A DNA stretch of 60,566 nucleotides, the filler included, from Hausera hauseri (Eukaryota): the NCBI GenBank assembly GCA_046269625.1. It is 11 parts of 11 records of this genome, joined end to end, with 100 filler letters (N's around TTAATTAATTAA, not from the genome) between each part and the next. Parts side by side here need not be neighbours in the genome. Positions count along the whole stretch, not along the records: positions 44,915 to 51,241 come from JBJURY010112876.1; positions 51,342 to 56,267 come from JBJURY010389590.1; 9 more parts are not named here. One strand, written 5' to 3'. A program made the position numbers and the translations under genes. This document shows, one piece after another, positions 8,163 through 56,267 of the stretch. Within the stretch, counting starts at the first letter, position 1; each line of letters starts with the position of its first letter. The notes beneath the pieces are model-generated. The model saw nothing but the letters and a program-made list of their open reading frames with translations. It had not been told where the DNA came from and did no database searches.

Positions 8163-8167
8163 TAACA

Positions 8168-8660: not shown

Positions 8661-9249
8661 NNNNNNNNNNNNNNNNNNNNNNNNNNNNNNNNNNNNNNNN
8701 NNNNTTAATTAATTAANNNNNNNNNNNNNNNNNNNNNNNNNNNNNNNNNNNNNNNNNNNNCAACACCTCATCATTTTCACATGCTGGATAAACATTTTCC
8801 ATTGTCAACAATATTCCCATCGTCATTATCAGACATCAAGTACGAATTCCTTCGAATGGATGCTGACATGAACACAGATGACTTCCTAATCAATCTCTTT
8901 AATATTCTTATCATATTCATACAGCTTCTGTGCTCATGACTACACGCGATGCAAGGATAAAACAATCAAACAACGATAGCACCAGCCGTGAAGATAACAA
9001 CGACAATCAAAATGAAGATCCACGAAAATGCTGTCTCAAAACAGCCGAAATAACCTCAACCAAATACCAACCTCTTACATCGTGTCGAATCCAACTCCAC
9101 CTATACATGACGCCGAAATTACATCCGCCAATCTATATTTATTACAATAACCCTTCTAACCTGTAGTTTTTGTTTCCCCACGTTTTCACCAGTCGTTTAA
9201 TCGACTGAATTTTAGTACTTGTATTGTGCGGCCTATACAAGGCTTTTTG

Positions 9250-16512: not shown

Positions 16513-17585
16513 CTACTGCCCATTGAATTTGTGATGCAAAAATCCAACTAAGTGCAGTGTATCCTTTCCACTTGACGAGATATTGCTTATTCGAACCTTT
16601 GCCACGTGAACATAGAATTTCCTGAATACGATATACATCGGATTTCTCGGGCAGTACCTGCAGCTCCTGTTCATAGAATTTACCGCGTATTTCCTCACCG
16701 TTTTAGTACTCTAAAACGTACATGACAAGTGTTTGTTTTGTGTTGATTGCTGAAATTCGGAAAACCTCTTCGCTGCAGTTCTAATTGAAATTTTTAATTA
16801 ATGGCGTCGTACTAATTTTTAAAATACGTACGTAAGCACCAATTTTATATTTTTGGTGTTTAACTATCTGTGGTTTTGTTCGGTTTCGATAAAACCACAT
16901 GTTTAAATCATCAATTACGTCAACCGGGTGCATTCCGTTGATTCCACGGTGTGTCGAGTGATTATATGCATGAATAATATCCGGCAGTACATTTATCCAG
17001 CGTTTATTGCTTTGCTTCGTAAAGAATTTGTTTAGGCGACCCCAAAAATGTTCGATTAAATCGTTCAACGAGTGCAGCCTTGTATTCGGAAAACACCGAG
17101 TAGTGGTTAACGCCAGACCATTTCAAGACCGCTGCAACGTGGGCGTTGTATAATTCATTATCCAAATCCGCTTGTAAATGCTTCGGCTGTTGTTGCTGTT
17201 TTATCAGTGTCTGAACAGTGTCGGCAATCTTTTTACCGCATTTAGATTTCACAGCAATTGCACGTGAAAAGCGACTAAACACATCAATATATGTCAGCAA
17301 GTACAGAAACTCATCCGTGATGCTGGGGTACGGAATCATTTCAATCATATCCATTTATCATATATTATTTATACTGGCAGCACGATATGCACGAATTGCA
17401 AAACGCCTTCGTATCGGTTTGTTTAGGTTGTATGCTAACTGTTTCCCGAGCCAACGTTGAATTTGTTGTCGAGTCTGTTTGACAGTCTTTGCCAGTTTAT
17501 CGACGCCAGTACACCAGACGGGATGACGTGGATAGAACCACACGTTGCCCATTGTTGTCGCTGGTGATGTCGTTTTTGTTTGCAT
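16513..17585 (-). pseudogene. Polinton retroviral-like integrase with C-terminal chromodomain-like segment
   Basis: YLLTYIDVFSRF, PKHLQAD, KAALVERFNRT, WINVLPDIIHAYNHSTHRGI, YKIGAYVRI. Frameshifted. Confidence 0.9.
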
Positions 17586-19008: not shown

Positions 19009-21775
19009 AAATAAAATTGACGCAACAGGTCAACCAACCCTCAATGAGTTCCTGGACTATGCAGCAAATGAAAGTAGGCAAATCAAGCAGGACAATTCGG
19101 TGGAACTTCAGGTCATTCAAGTCAACCTTAAATTAGAGGCAGCATACAGTAATGTCGATAACGAAATATCAGATCGGACCTTCAAGACGAAGAATAGGAC
19201 AATAATGCAGTCTAACAACATTCATGAATGGATCAATGAGGAATATTCAAAACTTCTCCATGAAGCTGAGGAGAGCCAGGATAAGTGGAACGGCTGGGCT
19301 CTCTCATCAGTCAAGCGATTGTTGATTCATGTATACAAGTACAGCCCGATGAGAGGTAGCTCGTACATAGAGCAACCAGAATGGATCCGCAAGAAGAAAG
19401 CATGTGTATATGTGCACAATCAGGACAACAGGTGCTTTAAATATTCAATCTTGTCTAAACTTATAGCGGATGAACATAATGCCTCGCGGGTTGGGTGGTA
19501 CAATGACCTACGGCATAGCTATGATTTTTATTGCATCACGTTTCCAACAACTCTGGAGGAAATCAAGAAATTTGCACATGTGAACCAGATGTCCATTAAT
19601 ATATTTGCAGTAAACGAATCAAATAGATTCTATTCCCTAAACGTGTGTGAAGTGGAACGCGATGACTATAGGGATCTTCTCATGATAGACAGTGGTGATA
19701 ACAGCCACTACATGTGGATAAAGAATTTCAAACGCATCGTCAGATCCCATATTACAAAGAATCATAGAAAAATTTTTAGCGGCGAAGTTGCTGAGGAGAA
19801 GCTCAAGGAACACATGATGCGCTCCAATAACAACTATTGCATCCGGACTGAATTCCATAAATAAGATTATATCGAGTTTCAGGAGTACGAAAAGATGATC
19901 AAAGTGCCAGTAGTTATCTACTGCAACTTTGAAGCGATCCTCAGACCAATGCACAGTTATAGTCCCAATCCTCAATGGAGTAGCACAACGGCATACCAGG
20001 AGCATGAGTTATCATCATACTGTATGTATGCCAAAGGACTCGATACGGAGGTATTCTTATTCAGGTGTCCAAATGCAGCGGCACACTTCATAAAGCAATT
20101 AGAGGATGTGGTTTACAGAATTGAAGAGATTCGACAGCAGCATAAAGAAACAAATGTGATGTCGTCATCAGAGAAACGAGATTTGCATATGGCAACATCA
20201 TGCAACCTATTCAAAGGACAATTTACGATGGAGAACAGAAACGTAAATACAGAGGCGCAGCTAGCAACAATTGCAGTCTGCGCTGCAAAATTTGTTCTCA
20301 TGTCCCCGTCATATTCCACAATCTCAGTGAATATGACTCCCATTTCATTATTTGTGAATTGGGTAACATGAAAGGTGACATTCAGGTAATCCCGAATAAT
20401 GAAGAGAAATATATATCATTCACTAAATATGTGAGCCACACCAGACTTAGATTTATTGACAGTTGTCGTTTTATGGCATCGTCACTGGACATACTGGTCA
20501 AAGGTCTACCAGAGGAAGAGTTAAAGGAAACGAAAAACTTCTTCCCAACAACTTTCGATTTAGTCAAACGGAAGGGTGTTTTCCCCTATGATTATATAAG
20601 GTCATAAGGATCATTGGACGAGACAACTCTTCCAGCTAAGAAGCACTTCTACAGCCAGCTATCAGGCACAAATATCAGTGATACTGATTATGAACACGCA
20701 CAGCGCGTCTATAAGACATTCAAATGCAGGACAATTAGAGATTATAGCGATGTATATCGCCAAATAGATGTGCTGCTACTCACAGACGTCTTTGACAGAT
20801 TCAGAGACGTCACACTTGCGAGTCACAAGCTGGATCTAACTCATTTTTTTATTGCCGTCGGAATGAGTTGAACGCCAATGCTCGGATATATGATTGTAGA
20901 TCTTAAAAGGCTATGATATGGTCCTCATAATCAAGTGAGGAATGAGGGGAGAAATCTGCCAGACCATTCACAGATATAGTGAGGCTAACAACACTTATAT
21001 GGCAGATTATGATGCAATGAAACCATCGCAATACGTCACATACCCAGATGCCAACAACCTATATGGTTGGGAAATGAGCAACCCATTACCATACGGCAAT
21101 TTTCAATGGGATGAGCAGCCGGACGAGATCAAGATCCAGGACCTGGACCCAAATGGAGATGTTGGATACATATTGGAGGTAGATGTGGAATACCCCAATG
21201 ATATCCACAAAAGGCATGAACAGCTGCCTTTCCTCCCAGAGAGCAAACAGCCGCCAAACGGAAAATTTACAAAATTGCTCTGTCATATGGAGAACAAGGA
21301 GAGATATGTAGCACATTACATTAATCTCCAGCAGGCGATAAAGAATGGACTCCGCATCACGAAGATCCATCGAGCCCTCCAGTTTAGTTAATCCTGGTGG
21401 CTGCAACCATATATCGGTTTTAACACAAAGATGAGGACAGAAGCGAAAAACGACTTCGAAAAGGACCAGTACAAGTTGTACAAGAACAGTGTGTTCGGAA
21501 AAACAATGGAGAGCATCAATAACCGAATAAATATAGAGCTGATCTGTGATTGGAAGAGGGCGAAAAAACTAACTGCGAAGCCCATATATGTTGGCATGTC
21601 CATACTGGACATATCGAAGACACTAACGTATAATTTCCATTATAACATAATGGTGCCAATATTCAACAAAAGGCTAAAGCTAATGTACATGGATACGGAC
21701 TCCTTCGTGTATCAAATCCAAACGGTGGGCATGTATGATGACTTTGCCAGATTATCTGCCCATATGGCTAAATAA
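19009..21775 (+). pseudogene. Polinton/adintovirus protein-primed DNA polymerase B
   Basis: GSSYIE.PEWI..KKA, NQDNRCFKYS, VIFHNLSEYDSH, RFIDSCRFM, RKGVFPYDY, DANNLYGWEMS, KLYKNSVFGKTME, YMDTDS. Multiple frameshifts. Confidence 0.95.
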
Positions 21776-29773: not shown

Positions 29774-30568
29774 TAAATTCACATAATTAATTGACCATAT
29801 GCTTTCGATAATTTTTGAATATCGCTCTTAAAATTTGCGTCACAAGTTTTAGCTTTCGTCGTTTTATTGCTAATAATAGCCATAAAATGTCCTCAGAACA
29901 AATATTTCATAATTCCATAAATTTTCTCTCGTTGTGATGAAAGTTTGAATGTTTGTTTTTAAGTATTTCGTTTAAATTTTTGATTGAAAACGTTTGATTT
30001 AGTCATGCGAAAATATAATGTATTTGGACTCTAATATTGAAAATGGCGAAATTGTATGAAAATAAAACGCTGAAGTATTTGATGTTTTACGTAACTGTAC
30101 TAGATCTACTGTAGTTAATTCAGAGAGATTTATACATCACTAATATACATACAATTTCGTTTGTTAGTGATGCAGAGTATACATTTTCTATAAATTCATG
30201 AGTCATTATCCTTTTAGTGTTTGACTCATTTTATAGCCTATTTTGTATAAAATCATATAATGCACAAGTGCCAATGAGAGTAGTTATAAAAGGCTGCTTG
30301 TAGAACGGCCCCTCAAATTAAAAACCATTTTCATTCGCTCACCCTCAACCACCACTCGTTCATGACATTTTAATTTGGAAAACCGACCCATAGCCCTCAA
30401 TACAACTACTACCAACAATTCAATTATGAAAATATGCAACAAAAATGGTGTCAAATAATTCAGATTGCAAATTTTGTGCAACAGGTCGAATTATAATAAA
30501 ATCAGGTAATAAATAAATTTGGAGTGAATGCACAATTTGTAAATGCTGTATAAATATATTCAATAAAA

Positions 30569-31396
30569 ATGGGTAATCCGAAACCACTGATTTTAAATTT
30601 AAACAAAACCAAATTTCAAAATAAACTATTTCCAAACAATTTTCGATTATTGATGGTTGGATTATTTGGATGTGGCAAAAATGTGTTGTTAATGCATATA
30701 TTAATCCAACCAGATTTCTTAGATTATAATAATTTGTTATTTTTTAGTACAACTATAAATCAACCAGAATTACGGCTGTTAAAATCCGCATTTGAAAATA
30801 GTATTACAAAATTGGGATTATTAAACATTTATGAAAATCAGGATAATTTAATTTCTATGTTAAAAAATCATTTACAAATAGAAAACCCATCTCCGGAAGA
30901 TTTAGTAAAAATGTATAAACTAAACCTTGAATCCTCTAATATTTCAGTTCAAGAAATGAATAAATTAGTTAATGAAAATAACAAAGTTTCTTTGACATTT
31001 TCAAATAAATCTGAAGAAATAATTTCTTGTGACAATTTACCCAAAAATAAAAAGAATTTAATAATATTTGATGATGTAGTAAATCTAAAAAATCAAGATC
31101 TAATGAAATCTTATTTTACAAGAGGAAGACATAATAATTGTAATGTAATATATATTTCTCAAAATTTTTATGGATTAGATAAAAATTCAATTAGGAACAA
31201 CTCCAATTGTTTCATATTTTTTAAATTAAATAAACGCGATAAAGATTTAATATTTAATGATTTATTTACCTTTACTGATAAAGCAAATATTGAGCAATCA
31301 ATTTTAAATCATTGGAATAAGAAGTACAATTACGTTTATTTTTGTAGAGATGATGAAGAAATTTACAAGAATATTTTTATCGAATTGAAATTCTAA
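30569..31396 (+). CDS. A32/FtsK-like packaging ATPase (Polinton/adintovirus type), Walker A degenerate
   Basis: FRLLMVGLFGCGKN, LIIFDD, YFTRGRHNNCNVIYISQNFY, SIRNNSN. Confidence 0.85.
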   Translation: MGNPKPLILNLNKTKFQNKLFPNNFRLLMVGLFGCGKNVLLMHILIQPDFLDYNNLLFFSTTINQPELRLLKSAFENSITKLGLLNIYENQDNLISMLKNHLQIENPSPEDLVKMYKLNLESSNISVQEMNKLVNENNKVSLTFSNKSEEIISCDNLPKNKKNLIIFDDVVNLKNQDLMKSYFTRGRHNNCNVIYISQNFYGLDKNSIRNNSNCFIFFKLNKRDKDLIFNDLFTFTDKANIEQSILNHWNKKYNYVYFCRDDEEIYKNIFIELKF

Positions 31397-31532: not shown

Positions 31533-32360
31533 ATGAATTTACATTATTTTACTGCTGTCACTACTCCTTTTGGCCTCTACGAGTACCTGTTTATTCCTTT
31601 CGGTTTGCGAAATACCGAACAGACCTTTCAACGACATATTGACTCAATTCTCTCAGATATTCCGCTTGCCCACTCTTACATTGATAATATTCTGATCGTT
31701 TCGTCTTTGGTCAAACAACACGAGGAACATCTTCGCGTAATATTCCAACGCCTTTACCACCATAATCTCCAAGTCAATGTCGATAAATGCCATTTTTTTC
31801 AAAAAACGCATCAACTTTTTAGGCCACGTTATTTCACCAGATGGCCACACTCCTCAACCAGACCGAGTTGAAGCCATTAAAAATATCCAGTTACCACTTT
31901 CGACCACCGAAATGCACAGCTTCCTTGGTACACTACAGTTTGTACATAAATATGTACCATATTGCTCCGAATTGACAGCACCATTTGCACACTTAAGCGG
32001 TATCAAAAAAAACATCAGCCCATCCAGTAAAGACCTGAGTTGGTAGACAAATTTGATAAGTTATGCGAAGGAATTAAGACTGTCGACATTCTCGCTTTCC
32101 CCAAGCCTGACGCGGAACTATTCCTTACTACAGACGCTTCAACCATTGCAGTAGGTGCTGCGCTTCACCAAATCCCAAAGGAGAAAACCAACCGCTGAAA
32201 TTTTCCCTCGTAAGTTCACACCGCCTGAAACTAGATAGTCAACGTTCGATCGAGAATTATTGGCCATGGTTCTAGCTTTAAAGCATTTCTACCACCTACC
32301 TGTTGCTCGCAATTTTACCACACCGACCGATCACAAGCCCTTAACTAACATCAAAACTGG
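31533..32360 (+). pseudogene. Ty3/Gypsy RT-RNase H fragment
   Basis: TAVTTPFGLYEY..PFGLRN, YIDN (from YxDD), FLGHVI, TTDAS..AVGA, RELLA, TDHKPL. Confidence 0.9.
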
Positions 32361-32499
32361 AGAAATGACTGGTACAACCCGGGGTCTCAAAGTTTTTATA
32401 AAATTTCCTTCGTTCACAAGTAATAATAATAATAAAATAATAATAATAGTATTAATAATAATAATAGTAAAAATAAAAAAATAATAAGAAGAATAAATT

Positions 32500-33157
32500 G
32501 AAAAACCAACCCATAGTCCTCATAAAACAACTACTGCAACACTTCAATTATAAAAATGTGCAATAAAAATGGCCTCAAATAATTCATATTGCAAATTTTG
32601 TGAAACAGGCCGTATAATAATAAAATCAGATAATAATTACATTAGGAGTGAATGCACAGTTTGTAAATGTTGTATTAACATTATTAAAATATTCAATAAA
32701 AATGGATAACCGAAACCACTGATTTTAAATTTAAACAAAACTGAATTTCAAAATAAACTATTTGCAAACAATTTTCGATTATTGATGAATGGATAATCTG
32801 GATGTGGTAAAAATATGTTGTTATTGCAAATGTTGACAGAACCAGGTTCCATAAATTATGATAATTTACTCTTTTTCTCAACAACTATTAATCAACCAGA
32901 ATTACGACTGTTAAAATCCGCATTTGAAAATAGTACTACAAAATTGGTATTTTTAAACATTTCTGAAAATCAGGATAATTTAATTTCTATGTTGAAAGAT
33001 TATTTACAAATAGAAAACCCATCTCCGGAATATTTAGTAAAAATGTATAAATTAAACCTTGAATCTTCTAATATTTCAGTTCGAAAAATGAATAAATTAG
33101 TTAATGAAAATAACAAAGTTTCTTTAACATTTTCAAATAAATCTGAAGAAACAATTT
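32500..33157 (+). pseudogene. Second, frameshifted copy of the Cys-rich ORF + ATPase cassette of 30376-31025
   Basis: Near-identical DYNNLLFFSTTINQPELRLLKSAFENS region and upstream sequence. Cut by the linker. Confidence 0.85.
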
Positions 33158-36445: not shown

Positions 36446-37457
36446 GACTTGGGTTATGCTTGTACATTGATACTAACGATTTTCTTGTGAGAGAAAGGTG
36501 CAAACAGATCATTGAAAAGTGTCTTTATAGATAAAAGATATTGAAGACAATAGTAGGACATAACTCCTAAAATGCAGCGTATTGTTGAAGGGAAGGGGAC
36601 GAACCACGAAAATTAAAACAAAAATTTTTTCGCAAAAACCGACCAATCAGATTATACCAAAATTAAATGGGAGTGGGAATAGTGAAACCCAATCTGCGCC
36701 AGAAAATGCTTTTTTTCACAGCCAAAATTTAAACAAAATTTTTACGTGCCAAATTAAAATTTTTACACGTACCTAAAGTCCATGCCGTACGCGTGCTTGT
36801 GTATCACTTTGACTGTGTGTCTTCTATCTCCGCCCTACTTGCCTTGCGTGTGTGTATCATTTTTCTACCCCATGACTCATCCCGAACGATATATTTTCCT
36901 TCCTTCCCTGGGGGTGTATTGGTGTCATGTCCTCCTTTCTACCTACTAATGTGGATCTGATGAAATTGTTGATTTATTCCGGTTATCTGTGCAATGAACA
37001 ATTTACATCAATGAACAGTTTTCTGAACATGTTTTGATTTAAAAATTATTTTTGTAGTCAGATCATCAACATCAGAACCAACCTTAAGGAATCGCCATGA
37101 CAACATCTTACACATGGATGACAATGTAAGATTGGTCAGGATGTTGAATATATCTGTTCGTCCAGTTCTATTGGAGTCAAACTGAAGTTGTTTGGATGAT
37201 TGACAAGTAGAATATTGTGGGATACGCTTTACAATCAGATTCGACTTTTTGTTTGCTAAAATAATTGCATTTTTCAATTGTTTGATACTATCGAAAAGAC
37301 TGCAAACAAGATATTGAAAGATGTCCTTGTTGGTAAAAGATATTGAAGACAATAGTGGGACATAACTCCTCAAATGTGGCGTATTGTTGAAGGGGAGGGG
37401 ACCAATACGGAATAGTCCAATGAAAATGGTTACATCATATAATTTATTTAATATCAT

Positions 37458-38253
37458 TTGATCATCATTTTATTTCTATATTCTGTGGTAAATGATGATG
37501 ATAAATTATTTAGTAATCTGCTCACAGTATTCTGTTATGTCCTTGTTCCTTGTGATGTCCAACTTGTAAATAACAAAACATATTTGTTACAAAATACGCA
37601 GGGCCGTCAAACAGCAATGCAAGCAGCCCAATTTTGTGAAACCAACAATGGTCATTTGCCAATGGGACCATATTTGGCTAATTTGATGCAATTAGGATGG
37701 ACTGGATTCAATTACTATGTTGGCATAACTGACTTGCTTTATGAACGGTCAAATAACAAAACGGGATGGATAAATTTTGATAAGACCGAATTTACTGACA
37801 TAAGATATTGGTCCCAAATTGATCCGGATGATGGTGCAGGGAAGCAAAATGAGGACTGTATTTTATTTCTTTCACAATATCTAGTGGACACAGGTTGTAA
37901 CAGTCCATATCCGGCCAACTTTGTTTGCGTGTTAGTCAATGCAATACGACCAACATCAGCTGTGGCTACAGTTCAACCAATGGTCGTGAACAATGACTCA
38001 GAAGAAGGAATATCAATCATTTATGAAACGAATAGTAAAATTTGCTGTGTCCAATTGTTAGTAACAATAAATTGTATTACAACTAATAATTTCTAGGTGC
38101 CTCAACAGAGGATCCAATTGCAAAAGTGTGTATTACCGACAAGATACAAATACCTGCATGTTGAACATTTATACAGATCAGTCATTGCCACTGAGATTGA
38201 AAAATGAAAGTACTTTGTGGATTCGATTGAGTTTCAACAACCAATCGGTATAA
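37458..38253 (+). CDS. C-type lectin domain + PAN/apple-like protein; intron 38057-38096; start uncertain
   Basis: AAQFCETNNGHL, YYVGITD, YWSQIDPDDG..NEDC...LVDTGC...FVC. Splicing a 40-nt GT-AG intron gives CCVQLCLNRGSNCKSVYY...CML. Confidence 0.75.
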
Positions 38254-42284: not shown

Positions 42285-44814
42285 GTCCATACGCCCAACT
42301 CTTATTTCGCCCCATCCACGTTCGCTTATCATCGTTACATGACAAATTGACTTTCGCACTAGTTATTATGGACAGCTGGTGCTCAGTTGATCGGAAGATC
42401 GTTTGAGACACAACAGTTCTTCATTGTCCTTCTTCTTCATAGATACGACGGTAATCAATGTGGTCGATTTCCGTCTGTCGTAGCTGAACTAATTTAGCGC
42501 GAATTTTCGGTCCACCGTCAGTTAAAATGCTATAACATTTTGGCCGTAGAAATATCCATTCCCGATACGGCACCCGACCTTCACTTTCATCCTTAAGGCA
42601 GCTCATCTTGTTGGTGATCGCACTGCTGTACAACGGCTGATTTGGTGGATAGTTGGATGTGTCCGGTAATCCATCTGACTGCATTTGCTGCAATAGCTGT
42701 TCGCAATTGACTTTTTTCAGCCGCAGGAAAAAACTGCCTGTGTCACCGGCAAATATACTAATGTTACAGCCGTCAAACATTTGCCGGTAACGTGCCAAAT
42801 TGCGATACTGTAGCTCATATCCGCAACTTGCTCAGATCCAATACCACTTGTCCTATGTAACTTGGCCGATCCAGAACGACTTCTTCCCGGTTTAAAAACA
42901 CCACAACCAATCCATCGGCAATGTACACTGACCGCCAAAACTGCGCCTTACTCGTGTACGTGACCAACCGCTTTTCGCTATTGCATAGGTGTACATTGAG
43001 CCGATTTTTCAGATTCTCCAATGTTTTTCCATACAGGGAATTGTTTTTCAGATTGCAGTAGTCCTTTTTCAACTTTGTACAAGTTGTGGTTCATTTCTCC
43101 GAATTTCCATCTATGTACGCCTTAAATGTGGGAGCCTAAGCAAATCGGATTGCACGATTCAGCTTTGTGACGAGTACACCGAGCTCCATGTAGAACTGTA
43201 ACAGGCGCCAATGGATTACGTAATTAAGCTTCGGTTCATGCGTCATGAGCAGTTTCTTAACTTTTGAACCTGACTGACATTGGTTAAATGGTGCGACCGG
43301 TAAATCGTCCTAAACGTCATACAGCTCATCTGGTACCACGAGATCGACTTCCATCAGGTATCCGACTGAGCCTGCAATGTCTGATCGTGGTAGGTTGACC
43401 ATTATGCCGTCCACATCTTGTCTGTCGACAACCCATTTGAATGAACAGTACGCAAATAGTTGTGAAAGCGCCCAGCCATACAGGTTATTAATATCAATAT
43501 ACAGCAGTGATGTAGTATCGGTAGCACGGATCTGATGCTTGTTGACAAATGTCATGCCGCCGTGAATACCAGCATCGAACAACCGGTACATTTCCGGGTC
43601 TTACAGCTGCTCAATGTCTCGATCCAGTGACATTAGAGCTGACACCCAACTCATTTCCGGTATGGAATAAAAGTTAAGTGGCTCCAGACTTTCTTCAGCC
43701 AACAATGCCTGGAATACATCGGCTAATAAATGCACGCCCAGTGTAAGATACTGGAGCATGTAATCCAACATGTTTCTACAGCCGAGCTCTGTCCAAGATT
43801 CTTGTGCTGTATGATATTCAAGTTCTGTGATGCCCTTCCATCGCGGCGGTAATTCCTCTGCTGTCCAGAGTCGCTCATACGACGTTGCAAAGTCAAATGG
43901 AAATATAACTTTGCTACGTGCAATATGTTCGAGGAACTGCGTTGAGGTTGTCGGCACATCCGGCAAGGCATTTACCAGCTTCGCCAGTGATTCATTCAGA
44001 AATTGGAATGAATCAAGGAAGCGTACCTGGAACTGGTTTATGCGTTCTGACAGGGACAGGTACTTTTCCATTGTTGTTGGGATTATGGACAGTTCCCAGT
44101 GCAGAAATCCGTTGATGGCCCATTTCAGTTTATGGTGAAAATCATAACCTCGGAAATTATGAAAGATGAACGATAGGAATGGCTGCACACGCCTCACTAA
44201 ATTGCATAAAGTACATGCTGCTGCCAAGTATCGACCAGTAAAATGGTCGTGATTCGGTACGAGCCGTTCCTGTGCATCAAACGGCAATATTTTTTTGGCA
44301 CAGACAACATTCCTCTGTGACTGCAAACGTCAGGCGTTCATCTTCATCTGTACAAATCAGGGGTTTTGTGCTGTTATTGCGATACCACAATGCAATTTCC
44401 GATTCATCTGTTGTTTCGATATGATGCAGGAAATCACGCACACAGTTCCAGCCGTGAAACATGTAATACTACGGTTGACCTGCAGCTTTTATTGGGACAA
44501 CCAATATTCCGACAGCAATTGGAACATGTTTTTGATCGTATACGTCGTTTCGTATGGTATTGCAAAATATCAGCATATATCACATGTTGGACTGTCCGTT
44601 TTAGACCAATCTCTTAATCGCAGATCCTTTTTGACTGGCATGTACATTGTTGTTCCTGATGCAATCTGTCAGCACAGCGTCACATGCGTTTTCCACGTGG
44701 TTTCTCATCTGAAGTCATGCAGACATGTAGGACACCATTTACAACGTATTTGTTTTTGGATAAACTGATGGTGATCCATGTCCCACAGTCGGTCCAAATT
44801 TGTTACGGACACGT
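42285..44814 (-). pseudogene. Polinton protein-primed DNA polymerase B, different family
   Basis: HDHFTGRYLAAACTLCNL, FHNFRGYD, RFLDSFQF, LYIDINNLYGWALSQ, LKNNSLYGKTLEN, AGDTGS, FLRPKCYS, DDKR...AYGH. Confidence 0.93.
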
Positions 44815-44914: not shown

Positions 44915-45240
44915 ATCGATTGCTATATTCGGTAATTGTCTTAGTAAGTCACATTCTAACACTACATCATCTGTTAGTTGCTCAATTACTGAGAATTCAT
45001 GCCGAAAAGATTGTCTTATTATGTGAATTTCTGGTTTCCATCGGAATTTACTCTTCGAGGATTGTCCAAAAGCTCCAATGCTTCCTGGATCCGTCGTAGG
45101 AGGCGAATACAATTGTTTCCGTAGGAATTACGGTATTGAATCATATTTTATCAACGATATTTCAGATCCTGTATCTATTAATGCGTAAACCTTCCAATTT
45201 TCCAATTGAATTTTGGGTTGTCGTATCGTAGACACTCTGT
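44915..45240 (-). pseudogene. Retroviral-type aspartic protease
   Basis: VYALIDTGSEISLI (DTG at 45167-45175) and FSVIEQLTDDVVLECDLL (ILGxD-like). One internal stop. Confidence 0.88.
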
Positions 45241-45889
45241 AGCCGTTGATGGTAACTTCAGTGGTTCCAACTGGCTGATCTATTAATTGTCTTAGCTCTC
45301 CAATTGGGTATAGTTCGTTATTCGTACCATTCGCGTTTTCTACAGCTTGGCTTCTAACTGGCGGCTAAACATCTTGGTTTCGGAGATCGCGTGTCTCACA
45401 ACTTCTGGTAAATAGTGACTGCGTTTCATTTTGTCTAGGTACTTTAGGTAAATATATTATACCGTGATCGTCGACTGCTGAGCGGCGATGTGGGATAAAC
45501 GTTCTCTCTATTTTGTAGATCTTGCGCAATATCCCGTAGCGTTTTGTTCCTTTGTAGGGATCTTCTATGTTAAATGGCTTCCGACAGGCGTCTGTCTGAC
45601 AAGAGCTCATAGATTGTTTCTCGCAATCTTCATGTATAGGTGCCGTTGGTGGCAATATTGGTAATGGTAATTTTATAACAGAGTATTTTTTGTGCCTACT
45701 CGGCCTGGTGATAATGTTTCCTCCCTTAGGCTCGTCATCATCCGAATTATTTCTTCGTGTCTTAGCATTTATAAATTTTTGCCTGTAGTCGAATATACCT
45801 CTTTTCCGTTTTCGATTATGGTAGCCAACATGTCGTTCTACATTTGTTTTCCATTTACTCTCTTCATAAGCCTTTAAGAATTTGCCGAA

Positions 45890-47730
45890 AGGAGTAATAA
45901 TAGCCGTTAAAATTTTGCACGAAAATCATGTTAGGGTAAATATCTCATATCCATTTATGATTGACTAAATTATAGCTTTTACCAATTGAATTAAAAAATA
46001 TATCGCTAGAAATCCTGACGCGGCTTGTCCGAATATCAGGAATCTTCTCCAAATTTTGTATAATATTTCTGTAGTTACTTTCTTATAATAACCAACACCA
46101 AGTAATGACTCCCATTTTGCTTGGTAACGCGAGTCACCTAATATTGTGTGCACTGCTCGATTCAGTTCGTGCGTACGTTGACGAGGAAAAGCGAGAAATT
46201 GTCGGAACGCCTCTACTTCTTTTGGTCGGTAAATGCCTTTCGCGGCTGTGTCCTGAAATTTATCGTCAGTTATTCCCTTTATTAAGTTCGTTTCTGTCAA
46301 CTTGGCAGGTGGCGCGATAAAGCCACCGTTCAATAAACTTACATAGTCGGTCTTGCTACGTCTGAACATCGGTTCTCCTAAGCTAGTTTTACAGTCTCTA
46401 AAGATTGTCGATTGAGTGGCATTTGCCAACAACACTCTGGTAATTGGCGTTGCTAATATCGGTACGTCTTAATATATCACTGGGAGTTCTTGTATACATC
46501 TCTTTTTTCCACATTAATCGGTATGTCCTTTTTCTCGCACTCATACGTCAATAGGACGTCTCCGGTTACTCGTCCAAAAACACCTTCCTTAATCGGAATT
46601 ATTGCTGATGCCAACTCGGGATTTGCATATATTAGAGCTAGTTTAGTTCTCATGATTTCCAAGTCCAATTTACAGTCGTTCGTTATCATTTTGTGATATA
46701 ACTCTGTTATTCCGGATTGTCCTTTATAGTAGAAATAGTCGTCTCTCTTTTTTATATAATCCTCGATTCGAATGTCTTGAGTCTCCAGTTTAAACTTTCT
46801 AGTGTTTATTTCTGTCTCAGCTACAAAGAATGCCTCATAATTTTTGCCATACTTTATGACATCGCATCTTGTGAGTACATCTTTTTTTACAAACTTTAGT
46901 CCATGAGTGTCAGAAATCAGTATAGTAGGTGTGGACTGTTCTGCTACCTCTTCTCGTGTCTTAGAATTATTTTCTGTACTACTTATGTATTGTTTCCCTG
47001 TCGTTTCATTGAACTTAAGTTCTTTAATTCTGATAAAATTACAATCGGTCTTGGCTAGGGGTTCCCAAATTACTACAGAACTTCGAAACGGACATGTGCC
47101 ATCCTGAATGTGGCACTTGTGGTTTTCTGTGTAAAGCTTTGTAACGCTATGGAACATCACCTTTTGTACGCGCATTTCGGTTTCATAAAAGTCTAGTACT
47201 ACGACGTTCGATTCTAGTCCTTTCGCGGTGTCGTATTTGGCAGCTTGACAATGCCCGGTGTGCATATCCAACCTTCCTACCGCTACTTTATACACTCTGA
47301 TTATTTTCCCTTGTTGCATTTCTAATTCCATGCCGTCCCATTTTATTATTCCCGTTTCTCTAGCTTGCTTACAATGTTGTCGTTCTAAATTCATCGGAAT
47401 TGGTGGCGTTGTCGGTTTGATTATTGATGAGTGTCCATGTATCAGCCCGGTTTGATTATTGATGAGTGTCCATGTATCAGCCCACAATGAAAGATGCTGC
47501 GAGATCGTCGCAACATACATTTTACCCCATCTAGGGTAAGTAGTTTGCGTTGTTGATATAATATATAACTTTTCTCTTTTGTTTCTAATCTGTGGGGCCT
47601 CGCATCTTCGCACATTTCCAAGTCCATTAACGAATATTTTTGGCCAAGTCTGAATTTGTCACAATCGTATACTGTGACTGCGCCTATTTGTTTTATCAAC
47701 ATCATCATGGTCAGAAAGTTTATTAGCCAA
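45890..47730 (-). pseudogene. Chuvirus-like (class III/gB-type) envelope glycoprotein with internal signal peptide and C-terminal TM
   Basis: VYDC, SL.D.E.C, C..RRSRSIFHCGL..HS, C..ARETG, G.C, C...DG.C...VIW, G.FG.VTGDV...YEC, FGQAASGFLAIYFLIQLVK.II.SIING. A 35-bp duplication at 47413-47482 and other lesions. Confidence 0.85.
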
Positions 47731-50700
47731 TTCGATTCGTTTCCTTTGCGATTTCCAGTTACATTTTGTAGCAGTTCTCCAAATCTGTTATTATCGAAGA
47801 AAGATCCATTTTGATGTTCTTCCTCTTTTTCGAATAATTTAGACTAGTTCACCTCTCGAGGTATTTTCCTGGCAGCCTTTTTTGCCAAACTAGTAGCTTT
47901 TTTAAATGAATTTTCTCGATTTTGGTTAGTTTTGATGGCCAGATATAGCAGTACTTTTCTTAATTCTTCTATGGTATTTTCCACCATAATTTTTTCAATT
48001 ATCATTTCATCGCTTAAGGTACTTCTGGATAATTTACACCGGAGGCTTTTCATGGCCATGGCGGCATTTAATATGGCCTTCTCTTTCTCATCCAATATAT
48101 CACCGCTGAGGCTAGAGTGGTTTACTATTTGTATCAAATCTTTCATCAGTTCGTTTAGTTCCTCATTATCCGCACTACCGGTCGGTATGGACATCTGCCT
48201 CAATTCCCTAATTAAGTCTCCATTATAGTTGATTTCTTCTCGTATCTTCCGTGACCTACCGACAGGATGCTTCTGTTTTATTACAACAGGTATACTGCCA
48301 TCGATCGGTAATAAATTTTTATCATATTGCTCATTACCTTCATCTGTTTGTAGGTACTCGAAATATACTGCTGCATCTCGGACTCCTATTATTCGTCCTA
48401 CATGTTGTTCTGCTTTAGCCTTCCTTATAGCCTCCTCTGTTGTTTCGTCGATAGCGGTGGTTATCACCAACCGGTTCACTTCACACGGAATAATTTCGAC
48501 TTCTATTAATAGTTCCGACTCGTCCAGTATCCTTTCTCTAAAATAAAATCTATAACTCAGCTCATGGGCGTATCCATTGTTCTTTATCCACAGTAATACA
48601 TCCTTTGCAAGGGAGCGCGTAGTGAACTTTTGCTCCTTTTCGCCCATCCAGTCTGATACTATCGTTACTGGGATCATTTCCTCTGCCTTTGCCTTTAAAA
48701 TTTTAGCATATTCCTTAAGTAAAAGCATAGTTACCGTACTAGAAATCGTATCTTGGCTAGCTAATTTAGTTAAAGTGGGAACTAGGTGTCTTAGTTGATT
48801 TTCAGTGAGGTTCACTTCAATTAAATGAATTAAATCTTTCTCGGTTTGTACCGGGTCCAGAAGCATTTCGACGTTAAACCTTTGGTCCGGAGAATATACC
48901 TCCATTTCCTCCAATCGTATTGGAGTTTTCGGATTCTCGGCAATTATTGAGTTTAAATAGGCCTCCCAATCTGGTTCATTTTCATTATCTGGTGGTTGAT
49001 AGCTCCTTGACAGTATGTCATTTGGCCTGTCTACACTTGGTGGCCATGTAGTTGCTCTGAGTTCTTGTAGTTTCTGTTGCATTTGGACAATTTTCGTTGT
49101 TCGGAAACATCGTCCATTAGCGGACGTTTGGTGGAGCAGTGTTAACAACGAACATAATTCTTCGGGTAAAATTAGCCCTTTTCTTGATATTTCGTTAGCT
49201 CAGACGTGACATCTCTTTGCCATGTTTGAATGAACAGTGACTTGTCAGCTTTATCGGCTTTTATAAAGGCGTATTTGCTTTTATAGACTTCGAGTTCTTT
49301 AGCCAGTTCGTCTAATCTCATCGCTCTCTGTTTCGTCTTAATGCAAGTTTCTTAGACTTGCTGTATCTGCTGTAACAATTGTCTTAGCTTCTCGTCGCTA
49401 ATTTCTGCCATTTCTGCCATCAATAGTGCTAATTCGTGCATCTCGTTAATACTCTTTGAATCCGGATCTATCGCATCTAATAATTTTTTTACAAACTTGA
49501 TCTCTTCGAAACTAAGGTGATGGTCGTTCTTTATTTTAATTAGTTCAGTATGAAGTCTCTGATCCGTTCCGTCCATCCATCCTTGTAAGAATTTCACCAT
49601 TTCTTCAACGATCGACCGATATTCGGGACAAAAGTCCAAGGTTTTAAGATCTCGGATCGACATTTCCTCGATAGGCTTGGCTGTCAAATACCGTATCCCT
49701 TTTAAACGGACATCTCTCAATCGCGGATAGAAATCGCAAGTCGCATTCCGTTTCCTCATGAAGTTTGTTTCTTCGATCATCTTATATATATCCTCTAGTA
49801 TCAGCATCTGTTGTTTCCTTTCCATAAAATCTAATTGACGCAGCGTCTCGAATTGGGTTCGGATGTCAATTTCTCCTCTCATTGTATCTAGATTTCGGGC
49901 GTCTTACTCTAATTGCTTCTTCACTGTAGTCTCGCTCTCCGGAAATTCGTTTTTTCGACTGTTTATCAATTCACTCAACCTTGTTATTACTTTGGACCAT
50001 TCGTTCAACTGATTAGCGATTTTTGGCTTTGCCAATATCGCTTTATCTAACAGTTTGCGAGCGTCTTCTAGCTCATCATCTGGACCTTTAATAAAATCAA
50101 TGACCCAACAGGCGTAATCGAACTCGTATTTATATTTGTCAAATTCGAGGATACAAACCAGAATTATTTTCTGTGCCTCATTATTAGTCGGTTGCATAAT
50201 CCTGTTCCTTAGACCATATATCTGGAATTGTTTTTCGGCTTCAATTTTAATACGATTCTCCAGATTTGTATATTGCTTGGAGGCCGTCGAAGCGATCTTT
50301 ATCATTTCCGTTAAGGGTGGAATACCTATCGGATCTATGCCCAACATCTCTAAGTCCTTTGCATCTTGTTTCTTGACCGGCTTCTTTTTTAGTTGCTCGA
50401 CTATAATGAATCTAATTACTTCCATGACACGCTCCAATTTACGTACTATTCTTTTTAATTTCGGGTTGGCTTTTAATGTATCTAGTAACGACTGGGCTTG
50501 ATTGATTCTAGTTTGAATGCTTTGGGTACTTTTATCCCACGTCTCCGGAAATTTCGTCTTACGTTTGATCCACCGTTCTAATTCACGTTTCCACTGAAAT
50601 ATCGTTTGTTTTGCCAATTCTTCGGGCTGATCTAAGTTTATAGCTTCACTTAGTTTTCCTTTACTACATAATTTCATATTTTTATATAGACTCTCTACAA

Positions 50701-51241
50701 ACTGTTCTTCCTTACCAGAAATATCCACTTGTTCGCTAATTACTTTGAGTTTCTCTAGGTTCTGTCGTAATACCTCTGGGGTGCGACAATTCTTCCTCAT
50801 TCTTTTTAACTCCTCTGCATCTTTCCACGAGCATTTAATTTTCCACTTTTTAGGATCGAGTTTCTCCTCTTGTTCTGTTTCCTCTTCGCTAGTGGGTAAA
50901 TGGCATGCGTCATTTATTTTATTTATAGATTTCGTCGGCTCATCCATTTCGCTTGGCGTAACTAAATTAATTTCCGGAACGCTCGATGCGCATTCCGCGT
51001 CGCTTTCTAACGCGATTTCAGTTTCTCTCCTTGTGCTCGACTTTTGCTTAAACATTGGGGATCTCGAACGATCCTTACGTTTTTGTCTCAATGATGGGCT
51101 ACGGCCTCTATTCTTGGTAATTTTAAGTATGTGGTTCAAGAAATTTTTCTTTTTCGTCGAACTCTGCCTCCTTAGTTACCGTTTTTATAGTATATTTGGG
51201 TTCTACATCCAAATCTGCTTCACCTGTGTCTTAGGCTTTTC
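47731..51241 (-). pseudogene. Accessory polyprotein region between Gag and Env (charged/helical part, HAT-like repeat, Ubl at about 48460-48677, AT-hook-like)
   Basis: ORFs of 411, 176 and 434 aa separated by stops or frameshifts. The 434-aa ORF is in frame with env across one stop that is Trp in the 10.9-kb copy. Confidence 0.75.
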
Positions 51242-51341
51242 NNNNNNNNNNNNNNNNNNNNNNNNNNNNNNNNNNNNNNNNNNNNTTAATTAATTAANNN
51301 NNNNNNNNNNNNNNNNNNNNNNNNNNNNNNNNNNNNNNNNN

Positions 51342-52862
51342 AACGAGGGACTACGGCCTCTATTTTTCGTAATTTTAAGTATGAGTGGTTCTAAAAATTC
51401 TTCCTTCTCTTCAACGTCCTTTTCCTCGGTTTTCTTTTCCCCGGTATGCTCCGGTTCTACTTCCGTAGCTGCTTTATCCAGAGTCTCAAGTTTCTCTGTC
51501 TCCTTGCTAATCTTAGGAAGGTTCTTCCTTCGTGCCATGTCAGTGAGCCTTCCCGGGGCGATAGAATGTTCGTATTCTGTTTCGGGTTCGCGCAGGCCAT
51601 GGTAGACTTCCATTAGCCGTAATTTATGTTCATATTCGTTTCTAGCCACTAAAACTTTAGGGTCATTAGATTCTGGCTGGCCTTTTAAAAAACGTCGTAA
51701 GTCTTGTATCTCAATAATCATACCCGTATCTCTACGGCCGCCATAAATTGCTTCTAGGTTCTCATTCCTTATTACGTTAGTTTTACAGGGTTCTACAAAC
51801 GAGACGCTTCGCGGATTCGGACAGGACCTCGCTATGTGTCCTTCTTGTCCACATGTAAAACATACTAGATTGCCGTTTCTTCTAACCCTTTGACGACCAT
51901 CTTCATTTAATGGAGATTTAGATCTGCTCGGATTTCTATTGTAATTTGCTGTTGTGAAGCCTGTCTAGGGTCTCCATACTGACAATTGTCATAATTCCGG
52001 TTATCGCTCTGTCGGTTTCCACTGTTAAAATTCCTTGGGCCGTCTATGCGTCTGTCCGCATTATAATTCGCTTTATTCGAATAGCTATTCCGGCCAAAAT
52101 TCTGACTGTATCGATCGTTCATACGATTATAATTATCGTTTCTGTTGTGATTTCCGTAATTCTTATTATACCGTCTATCATTTCTATTATTGCGGTTCCT
52201 ATCGTTTCGATCGGCTTGGCCATTATTTCTATCGTTTCTGTCATTGTTTCTGGCATATCTATCCAATGCCATTTCCAAATCCTGAGCTAATTCCAATGTT
52301 CTATCAAAATTCTCGGAACGTGCAAAAATCAACTGCCTTACTATATCTTTAGACCATATACCATTTATTAGCTGCGTCATCATCATGACGTCCAAATCGG
52401 GAGGACTTGCTTTTCTGCGGCTTCGTGTTCTGCTTCATTTTTAGCCTTTGCTATGTTTGCAATCCTCAAGGTGCTTACGTAACTGTTTGTCAATTTCTTT
52501 AAGGCGAAAGCAAATTGGGTTATCGATTCACCCTTTTGTTGAATTCTATTTTGGAAAGCCAGAAGTTTTTATTGCTGGGTTACGGTTGGTAGCAATTTCC
52601 GATTCAAGGCTCTTACCAGTGAGGACCAGGTCTTCTTCTTATCATCTGTGAGTTCACTATAGGCATCTGCGGCCAAATTCTTTAAATATAGCGATAAACG
52701 CTTAATCATTACGTTAGCTGCTAGTCCAGCACCTTCTGCGTGCAACTTGTACGTCCTTAAAAATTCATTGAGTCCATCCGGATCTCCGTCATAGGCGGGC
52801 AAATTTAACGAGTCAAACGTAAAAATATCCAATTTTTGGGCTACTGCCTGGTTTTCTGTCAT
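51342..52862 (-). pseudogene. Ty3/Gypsy-type Gag (capsid + CCHC knuckle) continuing into the accessory region
   Basis: LPAYDGDP..LNEFL..Y, YLKNLAADAY, QQKGESITQF, QLING; CFTCGQEGHIARSC at about 51821-51862, then open into ORF 51721. Confidence 0.88.
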
Positions 52863-53275
52863 TGCTTCGACGCTTAATAACTTAGGTTTAATTAGTTTGC
52901 GAACTTTAATTTTTTTCTCAGGGACTTTAAACTCAATTGGCGGATTAACAGCGTTTGCTTCGATAACTTTATTATCAGTTAAATTTGATTCCGATAACGT
53001 ACGTCTAATCCACGTATTCCCTTCCTTAATAAGTCTATTTCGTGTTTCACGAACGTTGATGTTCTCCTTACCGTTTAAAATAAGATTTAAATTTTCGTTT
53101 GACTGTGGTCTGTCAATATCCGTTCGTACTTTTAAATGTGTCGTTAGTAATCCTGAGGGTTTTCAATCTAAAATTTTAGTCTCTCAATAATCTACAATCA
53201 ATTACTCGATGTGGTAGCGCTGATCGCTAATGTGTCGTTACTTTTCACTAAAGTCAAGTCTAGCAAGTGCAAACT

Positions 53276-53293
53276 GTCCTGCTAGGGTCGCCA
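53276..53293 (-). other. Primer-binding site, tRNA-Arg-like
   Basis: TGGCGACCCTAGCAGGAC, 2 nt after the LTR end TAACA. Confidence 0.85.
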
Positions 53294-53295
53294 AA

Positions 53296-54076
53296 TGTTA
53301 ATGGTTAGGGTGGTCCTTATCCAACGCCCAACTATAACTTTTATTCCACTGTACTCTTTAATTAGCAGATAAGATCTAACGTTCTCGTTAGATGGTTTGC
53401 ACTTTATTTAATTGTGTGTACTGCTTGCAGTGCTTGCGTAGTTTACGAACGTCTAGTCTTAGCTATACAATTTATTTGAATTTATTTCTTAGTGTGGTCC
53501 AAGTCCCTCTTAAGGAGCGACGAAAGAAAAACTATAAAGATTTTACAAATGTACAAATTTATTAAAATAAATACCACACACCGATAACGTAATAGACTTC
53601 AATAATTTCGAGCCTTTCAGATATCTCTCGCAGCAATGTTCACAAGTTCTCTTCAACCAATTTAGAATTTTGTAATCACTGTTGAATTCTCTGATTTCTG
53701 AATCTACTTCGTCCAAATAGCTAGTCGCAAATTTTCTCTTACAATTTTTCTGTCCTCTGACGTTCTGAACGCTCGTTTATATAGTAGCTAGTTTGACTGT
53801 TTATTCGATATTTCCGTTTTCATTAAATTTCTTTAAATTTTCCGACAATTCAATTTAATATTCGGTTTACACTATTCCATATATTTACATTTTAAACCAC
53901 TATTTACATCAAATAAGTCATTACTGATACTGGAACTGTTTACAAAATTCGTAATTTTCGATTATTTGCACTTCAATCTAAGCAAAGCCGGCCTTTTTGA
54001 GATACACTCATAAAATAAACATATACAATTGATTGAATTTCGGCCTGACTTCACTCTACTTGGTAATTTCACAACA
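53296..54076 (-). mobile_element. 781-bp LTR
   Basis: TGTT...AACA termini, PPT on one side and PBS on the other, TATATAAA near 53776-53783, AATAAA sites downstream. Confidence 0.88.
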
Positions 54077-56267
54077 TTTCTCCTCCCTGATCGGCACTCT
54101 CGAATGTGCCCATTGCGTCAGTAGAGGTGCCGTGAGCTGGTCGTAGTCTCTCCATTCGTTCACGTAAGTCCGTTTCCGAATCTAAGCCACTCGGTATTTG
54201 CAAGTCGATATTATAGGACGTACTAGGCCTTTCTTGGAATATCTCTACTATCTTGTTATTTTCTCCATTTGAATAATATCTCAACCTTGTGGCTTCGGCC
54301 CTACATACTGGGCAGGTCGTCTTCCCATTTTCCAGGGTCCACGTTTTTAAGCAATATCTGCAGTACTTATGACTACAGTCCTTATTATCCAACACCACAA
54401 ATCCTTGGTATAAATCTGCGTCACAAACTGGACATTCCTCTTTTTCGGCGGCGTCAATGTCTACCAAATCTTCGTCTACCTCGATTCTTTCGAATACTAA
54501 CCCTTTTTGATTCTGATATAGGTATCCATACAACCGTTTCTGCTTTGGGTCTATTGAACTCTTTCGTGGATCATCTGATACTGCGACGAGAGTCCATTCA
54601 ACGATTTCTTGTTGGTCTAGATCTGGTATTCCTGTCTTTTTATATTGTCTCTTCAGTTGTATTCGTACTCGAGTGTCTACCGGAACTGTTAATCTATGTG
54701 TACCGCTTCTTGACTGGAATACAGGAGCCAAATATCTGCCTACATTATAGTCTTCTTTCGCATACCCATTTCCACTGACTATCCTTCTTGGAACGGTGGA
54801 TACGCAAAATACTGCTTCTTTTATCTTGCCTTTACTATAATACTCTGCCATTACCAAGATGCGTTTGTACGTTTTAACTTCACCAAATTCATTTACGGTG
54901 ATCGGGAGGTCTTCTCATGGATTCAGGTGACGGTGGTTAACCTTCTTCTTGGGAGTTTCAGGTCTCGCGGCTTTTGATCCTTTTTCGTGCTTGTCGCTTC
55001 CCTTTTGTAAATCCTTACTTTCATCTGCTTGTTCTTTTATGACTGATTGGTTTGTAGCTCGTATTTGTCCTTCCGATTGATTCTTATTAGTTTTACTTCT
55101 TTTTATATGGATATACTCGAGGAAAGAGGTCCTCGTCTTGGGTCTTTTCATTTTCTCGGATTCTGTGAGCGGGCCTTTAGATTTTTCTTTTTCTTTGCTC
55201 GTTGAGGTTCTAATTTGACTGGTGGAGTCTCCTTGTGAACTATTTTGGATCGTTATACGGAATCGGTCTTGGCCTTGAGCTTCTACTTTTCTATAACTTG
55301 GGTATTCACTGAATCCTCGTCGGAATTTCTGTATCAGCTATTTGGGGTTATTGTCAGATATTACATTTATATTATTATCTTTGGGCTTCCATTCATGGTC
55401 CCATCGCAAATGATCATAAATGTCCTTAATAAATTTGGTCCGTTGGCTAGCCGTCATTAATTTAGGGAATTTGTACTGTCTTCCATTCATAGCTTCGAGC
55501 ATTGTTTTGAATTGAGATTCGCGTGATGCGGATGGAAGTAAATGTCCGTTCTTACGCATGAGGGTATTTTATATTTGGTTCACTACAATTGGGTTTCGGC
55601 TTATCTCTCGGATACCTGCGATGTATTCTTGCCTGATTCCTAGTCGTTTCAGTGCTTCGTGGGTCTGGAATCCCGTAACGATATAACCATACAGGCAATG
55701 ACTGATGTCCTCCTGAATTTCTAAGAAATCTTTTCCTCTTTCCAGTTGGAGCTTTGTAATTCCTGTAACATCGGGGAACGTGTCTTTAATTCTGACTCGT
55801 GGTGCAATTATTTTATTCAAAATATCCTCTCCGTTCACATTTCTGATGGATACCTCAATCGGAAAATACCATACATCGTCCTTTTCTCCATAGTTAACCG
55901 CGAATATTCGTGTATTCCGGCCATCTGGAACCAATCTGTATGATTCTCCGTTTTGCACTATCTCATCCTCCGTAGGCTTCTGTAAGTATAGTAAATGGGG
56001 TAGCGGTTTCATTAATTCGGATCGCCAAGTCATTTCGATCATGATTTTTGTTGGTATATCTCCTATTCTGATTTCTAGGGCGTATTCCATCAAGCTAAAG
56101 CAACATAATTCGTATGTGCTAAATTTCCACTGCTGTCCCTTCTGTGTACTCCAAGGTTGCCCTTTTATTCGGTATTGTAATTCTCCATCTGCGACATGAA
56201 TATAGAGTTGTTGGTGTGTTGGTTCGTAAGGTACCAAATCTCTCAGTTGGTAGGTGTGAGCATCTTT
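54069..56267 (-). pseudogene. 3' accessory frame: cupin-like, inactive DEDDh exonuclease-like, linker, C3HC4 RING
   Basis: Four ORFs in one frame separated by single stops. EVSIRNVNGEDILNKIIAP..I.D..PDVTGIT..L..GKDF.EIQ..I. CPVC...CSHKYCRYC...W...CPVC. The stop lies inside the LTR. Confidence 0.8.
54077..54088 (-). other. Polypurine tract
   Basis: AGGGAGGAGAAA immediately before TGTTG. Confidence 0.8.

Follow-up and report, generated by a model that had tools for sequence, protein, structure and literature searches.

The 60,566-nucleotide (nt) stretch of Hausera hauseri DNA analyzed here (GCA_046269625.1; hereafter the window) consists of 11 contigs of 4-8 kilobases (kb) each with N linkers between them, and two of these, contigs A and B, both read on the minus strand, carry a retroelement with long terminal repeats (LTRs). 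The two contigs likely represent one high-copy invertebrate Ty3/gypsy family with an inferred single gene in the order Gag, accessory cargo, envelope glycoprotein (Env) and protease, followed, as predicted, by reverse transcriptase (RT), RNase H as well as integrase, whose product may be a polyprotein threaded through the endoplasmic reticulum (ER) membrane; we give this reading a probability of roughly 0.78. It starts from the sequence of domains along either contig, an overlap between the contigs, signal-like and anchor-like stretches, a high copy number and selection on the reading frame, all of which were observed. Remnants of transposons and of Polinton-like elements, together with a C-type lectin, on the other contigs mark the source as repeat-rich animal DNA. 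The two contigs are:

44915-51241, minus strand: contig A, with accessory block, signal stretch, Env, anchor, tail and protease
51342-56267, minus strand: contig B, with 3′ open reading frame (ORF), polypurine tract (PPT), LTR, primer-binding site (PBS), Gag, CCHC knuckle and open spacer

The features that characterize Ty3/gypsy elements were found on these contigs, namely an LTR with TG...CA ends, a PBS, a PPT and a Gag with CCHC knuckle on contig B and an aspartic protease on contig A. The order protease-RT-RNase H-integrase was seen in relatives, not on contig A. On contig B, the following were identified:

54077-54088, minus strand: PPT adjoining the LTR, from the sequence
53296-54076, minus strand: LTR of 781 nt with TG...CA ends and a 4-nt inverted repeat, from the sequence, with the PPT before and the PBS after it
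53276-53293, minus strand: PBS, likely for tRNA-Arg(UCG/UCU), from the sequence
51821-52862, minus strand: Gag, with capsid, Asn/Arg-rich nucleocapsid region and one CCHC knuckle; one stop at 52571 and two frameshifts near 52400 and 51940
51342-51820, minus strand: open spacer 3′ of the knuckle, its last 155 nt being the overlap with contig A

Because the PPT lies before and the PBS after the same LTR, the 3′ and 5′ LTRs are collapsed or shared, and no second LTR copy confirming the direct repeat was present in the window. Possible origins of the single LTR between PPT and PBS (54088-53276, minus strand) are a collapse during assembly, copies in tandem or a circle with one LTR. The last 8 nt of the PBS complement were identical to those of the Arg_UCG_UCU rows in supplementary file 1 of PMC13524379, and no tRNA gene for comparison with the PBS was found within the window. 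With regard to Gag, the capsid matched Pfam Retrotrans_gag with an E-value of 0.007, short of the family cut-off, and the knuckle (51862-51821) matched PF00098 (E=1.4e-7).

The order of domains on contig A was as follows:

49176-51241, minus strand: first part of the accessory region, helical, no domain identified; two stops (49906 and 49354) and two frameshifts (near 51135 and 49175)
47733-49199, minus strand: second part of the accessory region, with a helical domain, a ubiquitin-like domain, a basic motif and a further helical domain; stop at 47846
about 48677-48456, minus strand: ubiquitin-like domain, assigned by profile and by colinearity with the cargo of the relative L001
about 48176-47847, minus strand: helical domain where relatives carry Bcl-2, assigned by position, with a low-confidence model
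47679-47732, minus strand: internal signal-peptide-like hydrophobic stretch (hydropathy 1.63) before the mature Env start, at the same position in relatives
45887-47678, minus strand: Env glycoprotein of Monjiviricetes (chuvirus/nyamivirus, gB-like) type, by PF24664
near 46012-45956, minus strand: Env membrane anchor (hydropathy 2.23)
45212-45886, minus strand: tail or linker of about 230 codons from anchor to protease; stop at 45367, PTAP at 45649-45638
44915-45211, minus strand: retroviral-type aspartic protease, DTG at 45175-45167, PF00077 E=1.7e-5; stop at 45130, the contig ending at its C-terminus

Matches of Env to PF24664 (Monjiviricetes_fusion; E=1e-17 and 4e-24), combined with hydropathy, predict a gB-type ectodomain between signal and anchor. 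The Env frame is interrupted by three stops (46471, 45967 and 45928), by a frameshift near 46506 and by the tandem duplication of 35 nt at 47483-47414. A preliminary description of this stretch had reported the PBS, Gag capsid, CCHC knuckle, a motif shared by both contigs, the glycoprotein and the DTG protease, and all of them were recovered at the same positions on the minus strand. In line with its account, no protease was found on contig B over the approximately 160 open codons after the knuckle; its accessory block of about 3.5 kb corresponds to 3,395 nt from the motif to the Env signal, and its gap of about 6.5 kb between nucleocapsid and protease to 6,394 nt from knuckle to protease, across the inferred join.

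Env and protease thus stand on one contig, and gag is connected to Env through the 155-nt overlap, from which we infer the join of A and B. The end of contig B and the start of contig A aligned over 155 columns with 109 matches (70% identity), and both contig ends were reached. The score of 121 was the highest among 440 contig-end pairs, the runner-up having 35, and 2,000 shuffles yielded at most 38; the 12-residue motif common to both contigs (51379-51344 on B, 51127-51092 on A) lies within the overlap, which extends past it. Because the identity of the overlap is only 70%, we read A and B as pieces of different, diverged copies, as the preliminary description had already done.

These figures bear directly on the reading in which the contigs come from unrelated elements, or in which the accessory-Env block is nested and the true order is pol-accessory-env. 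We regard it as highly improbable, the least probable of those considered. It draws on the location on different contigs, on the 70% identity of the overlap and on a second cargo-Env copy, in which an integrase core (13448-13030, minus strand; PF00665, E=3e-14) directly precedes the truncated cargo:

9242-12931, minus strand: second cargo-Env copy, more decayed and truncated on either side, on a different contig (67% nt identity)

The overlap statistics argue against it, as do the spacer devoid of a protease and the continuation of Env into protease on one deeply covered contig. None of 16 long relatives scanned had RT or integrase before Env, and the second copy, cut mid-domain at 12931 and within Env near 9242, reads as rearranged; together with the integrase core, it is probably a rearranged or nested copy. 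A pol-cargo-env order taken from this copy was rejected. Unrelated contigs, which the preliminary description had named as grounds for abandoning its proposal, are at odds with an overlap that is the best of 440 pairs and above 2,000 shuffles.

With regard to the reading frame of the proposed single gene, the inferred path from Gag to protease holds 9 stops and 6 frameshifts; the whole frames of contig A hold 94-153 stops each. Over 640 aligned codons, the studied copy and the second copy differed at 0.26, 0.20 and 0.52 of codon positions 1, 2 and 3, respectively, and Env is under purifying selection between copies. The second copy had sense codons at all three comparable stops, among them the stop that separates cargo from Env signal. 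In two public runs, 13,321 contigs of X1, possibly the source, and 1,215 contigs of X2 aligned to contig A, with depth in all 30 bins, those of Env, tail and protease included; read-based copy number and depth accordingly refer to contig A. Of these X1 contigs, 656 of 13,321 were at least 99% alike to contig A. The stop at 45967 differed in 35 X1 and 5 X2 contigs (among the 40 of 1,663 substitution rows listed), and other copies had indels at 46506 and at 49175-49178 (among the 12 of 19 indel rows listed). Since the second copy and the read contigs differ at stops and indels, the lesions are private to the copies in the window, and the family is a high-copy one. Intact members may exist; the copies in the window are not the near-identical copies with intact ORFs by which errantiviruses are recognized.

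A HMMER search with Env over 1.84 billion representatives yielded 72 relatives, of which the ten with the lowest E-values were 28-31% identical; relatives are labelled here with P or L numbers. No match was obtained in word-based protein searches with Env and Gag, in three viral-contig scans, in a metagenome DNA pattern scan of the overlap motif or in an Atlas search with Env. Seven Cys were invariant in a 10-row alignment of Env with relatives (approximately 28% identity). Among the 16 long relatives mentioned above, a protease followed Env in 11 and RT followed Env in 5. Of the 14 relatives with at least 1,000 amino acids (aa), 6 had a CCHC motif 219-612 residues before Env, and 5 combined the knuckle with a downstream protease motif. 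L002 encodes Gag-knuckle-Env-protease-RT-RNase H-integrase in one frame of 2,693 aa (440-8521). In each of the 10 relatives measured, hydrophobicity rose to one strong peak in the interval from mature Env to protease; an eleventh relative, without start motif, was dropped. The Gag of contig B was closest to the Gags of P0013 (E=2e-18), L001 (E=4e-12) and P0010 (E=2e-9), in small sets. A quick Env tree of 28 rows, with 44 shorter matches left out, paired the two copies from the window on a long branch, in a set with P0006, P0013, P0015 and P0003 that the tree did not resolve, and thus did not place the family.

Several of these relatives had further peculiarities. L002 carries about 300 extra residues after integrase, with a hydrophobic stretch at each end. 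P0073, of 4,844 aa, has seven protease-like stretches, C2H2 fingers and ankyrin repeats between Env and RT, and about 1,500 residues after integrase. NCBI nr assigns P0004 (2,627 aa; knuckle-Env-protease-RT-integrase) as a hypothetical protein to a metagenome-assembled genome of Flavobacteriaceae, most likely owing to animal contamination in the bin.

The private lesions and the relatives, taken together, suggest that Env lies in frame inside a Gag-cargo-Env-Pol polyprotein. Of the Gag-accessory-Env-Pro arrangement in the preliminary description, both the order and the single polyprotein are supported by the overlap, the second copy and stop-free relatives; a single open frame does not exist in the window. 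It is highly improbable, in our estimate, that Gag-cargo and Env-Pol are instead separate frames linked by read-through or splicing. The stop at 47846 in the studied copy would fit such an arrangement, as would an in-frame stop in L001 (3058-3060), which separates the Bcl-2-like domain from the Env signal in an element otherwise open, and several database relatives begin shortly before Env. Yet these two stops do not coincide in position, the second copy has an open frame at this point, and P0003, P0006, P0013, P0015 and L002 all read through. The stop in L001 may be either a mutation or a read-through site.

The inferred cargo between Gag and Env comprises about 1,280 aa, 3.4 kb of it on contig A. 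Its last 480 residues before Env aligned colinearly with L001's cargo at a score of 91, which 1 of 500 shuffles reached. L001 and P0013 share the order Gag-knuckle-ubiquitin-like-Bcl-2-like-Env (PF00240, E=8e-5 and 0.03; PF00452, E=0.019 and 0.055); in P0003, a Bcl-2 match (E=0.001) precedes Env. A three-row ubiquitin-like profile gave 10.0 bits at 48542-48460, compared with 8.8 bits as the best of 1,000 shuffles; PF00240 matched the second copy with E=0.09, and Atlas leads for the cargo were ubiquitin/SUMO-like clusters at 0.76. A ubiquitin/SUMO-like domain in the cargo is thus modestly indicated. The Bcl-2 pairwise score of the helical domain before the signal was equalled by 18 of 1,000 shuffles. 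Searches of PDB sequences with cargo pieces returned chance matches only, and NCBIfam returned none.

Across relatives, the shortest cargo between knuckle and Env has about 220 residues and the longest at least 1,340. The upper value comes from P0015, in which the cargo precedes an Env that starts near residue 1345 in a single protein; a cargo as long as the inferred 1,280 residues therefore exists in one protein. A block related to P0015 was also present in the window:

4246-7466, minus strand: sister-family cargo block with a 917-codon open frame, 56% identical to P0015 residues 271-1145

Both this block and P0015 contain exonuclease-like, ubiquitin-like and Bcl-2-like domains, and the exonuclease-like region is located within the polyprotein in the sister family and in the 3′ ORF in the studied family. 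The features of this 3′ ORF on contig B are:

54069-56267, minus strand: 3′ accessory ORF of at least 732 codons, truncated by the contig end, directly upstream of the PPT and terminating within the first LTR bases
54294-54437, minus strand: C3HC4 RING finger, PF13639 E=6.8e-8, matching RNF4 and other E3 RING domains
55590-55920, minus strand: tentative exonuclease-like (DEDDh-type) region, catalytic residues not evident

The ORF has three internal stops (55571, 55340 and 54917). Its exonuclease likeness remains tentative: the region was homologous to a stretch of the P0015 cargo (score 54, reached by none of 1,000 shuffles), a three-row profile ranked SDN1, a DEDDh nuclease, behind a designed repeat protein with E=0.072 for SDN1, and Pfam gave no match for the region. 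AlphaFold models, as advised in the preliminary description, were too poor for use, with a predicted local distance difference test (pLDDT) value of 43 for the ubiquitin-like/helical cargo and an uninformative 38 for the exonuclease-like region; Foldseek had no match for either.

A number of observations weigh against the proposed single gene and its topology, in addition to the integrase core before the second copy and the in-frame stop of L001. The join is not spanned by any single molecule, nor is contig A spanned by any one piece among the listed read contigs. No RT, RNase H or integrase of the studied element is present in the window, contig A stopping at the protease. The first 650 cargo residues had no Pfam match and none among the 72 Env relatives, so their place in the polyprotein is given by the overlap only. 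The comparison for the Gag of contig B covered Gags of Env-internal elements. Neither profiles nor pairwise tests against four Bcl-2-like relatives gave a positive result, and the helical domain is at most a candidate Bcl-2-like domain. The signal peak was over the threshold in just 6 of 10 relatives, and the Env C-terminus has a second, weaker hydrophobic stretch (1.54), which, were it to span the membrane, would reverse the topology. Finally, P[TS]AP occurred in the tails of 1 of 10 relatives and a YPxL-type motif in 4 of 10; conservation of the tail PTAP was rejected on this count, and as a putative budding signal the motif is a weak hint.

Flavivirus-type membrane polyproteins serve as the model for the topology that we propose. 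By analogy, the polyprotein would be made on the ER, with Gag and cargo remaining cytosolic. The internal signal would take the Env ectodomain into the ER lumen, where signal peptidase would cut Env free, and the single anchor would bring tail, protease and Pol back to the cytosol. Gag would thereby be tethered via the signal stump and Pol via the Env tail, and capsid, fusogen and enzymes would meet on the membrane in a 1:1 ratio without frameshifting or splicing. The element's protease might then free the mature parts, and enveloped particles could bud and enter neighbouring cells. The RING ORF, the ubiquitin-like cargo and the putative Bcl-2-like domain may modulate ubiquitination and cell death in the host. 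None of these steps is within reach of the copies in the window.

As a further, speculative step that we think possible though rather doubtful, particles of this family might be inside out compared with those of retroviruses, with Pol as the cytoplasmic tail of Env, Gag on the signal stump, the budding signal behind Env, an expandable cargo bay, and modules, such as the exonuclease-like domain, that move between polyprotein and 3′ RING ORF. If true, inside-out assembly would represent a third route to enveloped particles that reverse-transcribe, and one that is widespread among invertebrates. It is, on the other hand, conceivable, if unlikely, that the gene order is as proposed and Env is no longer infectious, serving as a particle anchor on internal membranes or being carried as a passenger, with movement confined to the cell. 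The family is known from genes alone, its copies are decayed and abundant, and its late-domain motif is not conserved; for Burro, a planarian element of similar layout, the source itself calls the provirus reading a hypothesis (PMC6431247). Purifying selection on Env between copies, the seven invariant Cys of the 10-row alignment and the retention of signal and anchor argue against a non-infectious Env. The real question touched by the membrane-threaded polyprotein is how a 1:1 Gag-Env-Pol product threads the membrane and builds a particle, for which a literature search found no retroelement paper. Decayed and split copies such as those in the window are a poor system for this question, and naturally open relatives a better one.

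Further elements were found on other contigs of the window, with no link to the studied element shown for the last three:

458-1300, plus strand, and 3269-3772, minus strand: Harbinger-type transposase (DDE_Tnp_4) and Myb/SANT ORF pair
20146-21617, plus strand, and 42829-44329, minus strand: two decayed, Polinton-like protein-primed DNA polymerase B genes (PF03175), about 30% alike
31545-32370, plus strand: gypsy-type RT fragment
17046-17354, minus strand: integrase fragment
37452-38096, plus strand: C-type lectin ORF

The RT fragment is flanked by a 666-nt direct repeat with 88% identity (30371-31025 and 32494-33157).

Among known systems, the nematode endogenous retroviruses described by Sacco et al. 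in 2022 reportedly have a continuous gag-env-pro-pol frame, with Env before pol in Metaviridae, and are said to occur in nematodes only and to lack a long cargo between Gag and Env. Anakin (BEL/Pao, with a chuvirus glycoprotein) and the endogenous viral elements of Jingchuvirales likewise combine a fusogen of the same Pfam family with an LTR element; Anakin belongs to another LTR superfamily, and no Env-internal polyprotein is described for it in the passages considered (PMC10084718, PMC12440569). The bdelloid rotifer elements Juno and Vesta carry an exonuclease-type (DEDDy) ORF3 downstream of pol (Rodriguez et al. 2017, PMC5408684). There, the exonuclease ORF replaces env, whereas here it would be additional to Env and is fused to a RING finger, and the region is weakly DEDDh (SDN1)-like, without evident catalytic residues.

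Elements with a gB-type Env in the order GAG-ENV-POL occur in Nematoda, Bryozoa and Platyhelminthes, in several separate clades (Chary and Hayashi 2026, PMC13524379). These errantiviruses, of which six Schmidtea elements are listed, share with the studied element the gene order and a gB-type Env between signal and anchor. That search took Gag within 5 kb of Env; in the studied element, the Gag start precedes Env by about 5 kb. In the main text of that paper, the words 'accessory', 'polyprotein', 'RING' and 'exonuclease' are absent, its figures and GitHub files being outside the comparison. Judged by its sequence, the element fits this kind in every feature testable on the contigs except intactness.

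A close likeness in organization is to Burro/GYPSM1 of planarians, which has Gag with CCHC, a long cargo, a Ubi/SUMO-like domain and an Env related to mononegavirus fusion proteins followed by protease, as well as thousands of copies and extra accessory ORFs (PMC6431247). Its 4,873-aa polyprotein holds env in frame between gag and pol, and its ubiquitin-like cargo before Env was published in 2019 (Arkhipova and Yushenova, PMC6431247). Burro also has a BCL2-like domain immediately preceding Env, a place occupied in the studied element by the helical domain described above. Burro differs in having two or three knuckles instead of one, in its MATH, BIR and ankyrin domains, which had no Pfam match on our contigs (these end at the protease), and in a size of more than 30 kb; the studied element, with its LTR of 781 nt, is estimated at about 15 kb or more, half of Burro's stated size, so that "giant", as the preliminary description had it, stands as an estimate only. 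That description cited Burro correctly for accessory ORFs but missed its env between gag and pol. Its rule that retroviruses and errantiviruses place env 3′ of pol is contradicted by Burro and the GAG-ENV-POL elements, and novelty of the gag-X-env-pol order was rejected, the order having been published for planarian Burro (2019) and GAG-ENV-POL errantiviruses (2026; PMC6431247, PMC13524379). The studied element appears to work like Burro; membership in Burro proper is not shown, given its one knuckle, the lack of MATH, BIR and ankyrin matches and of RT on the contigs, and its smaller size. With the gene order already published, the map of retroelements is unchanged. What is new is a distant lineage (approximately 30% Env identity) that carries an accessory block of about 1,280 residues as well as a 3′ ORF combining RING finger and exonuclease-like region, which adds to the known systems a very abundant family whose cargo is among the longest in its relatives and whose cargo modules are shuffled between positions.

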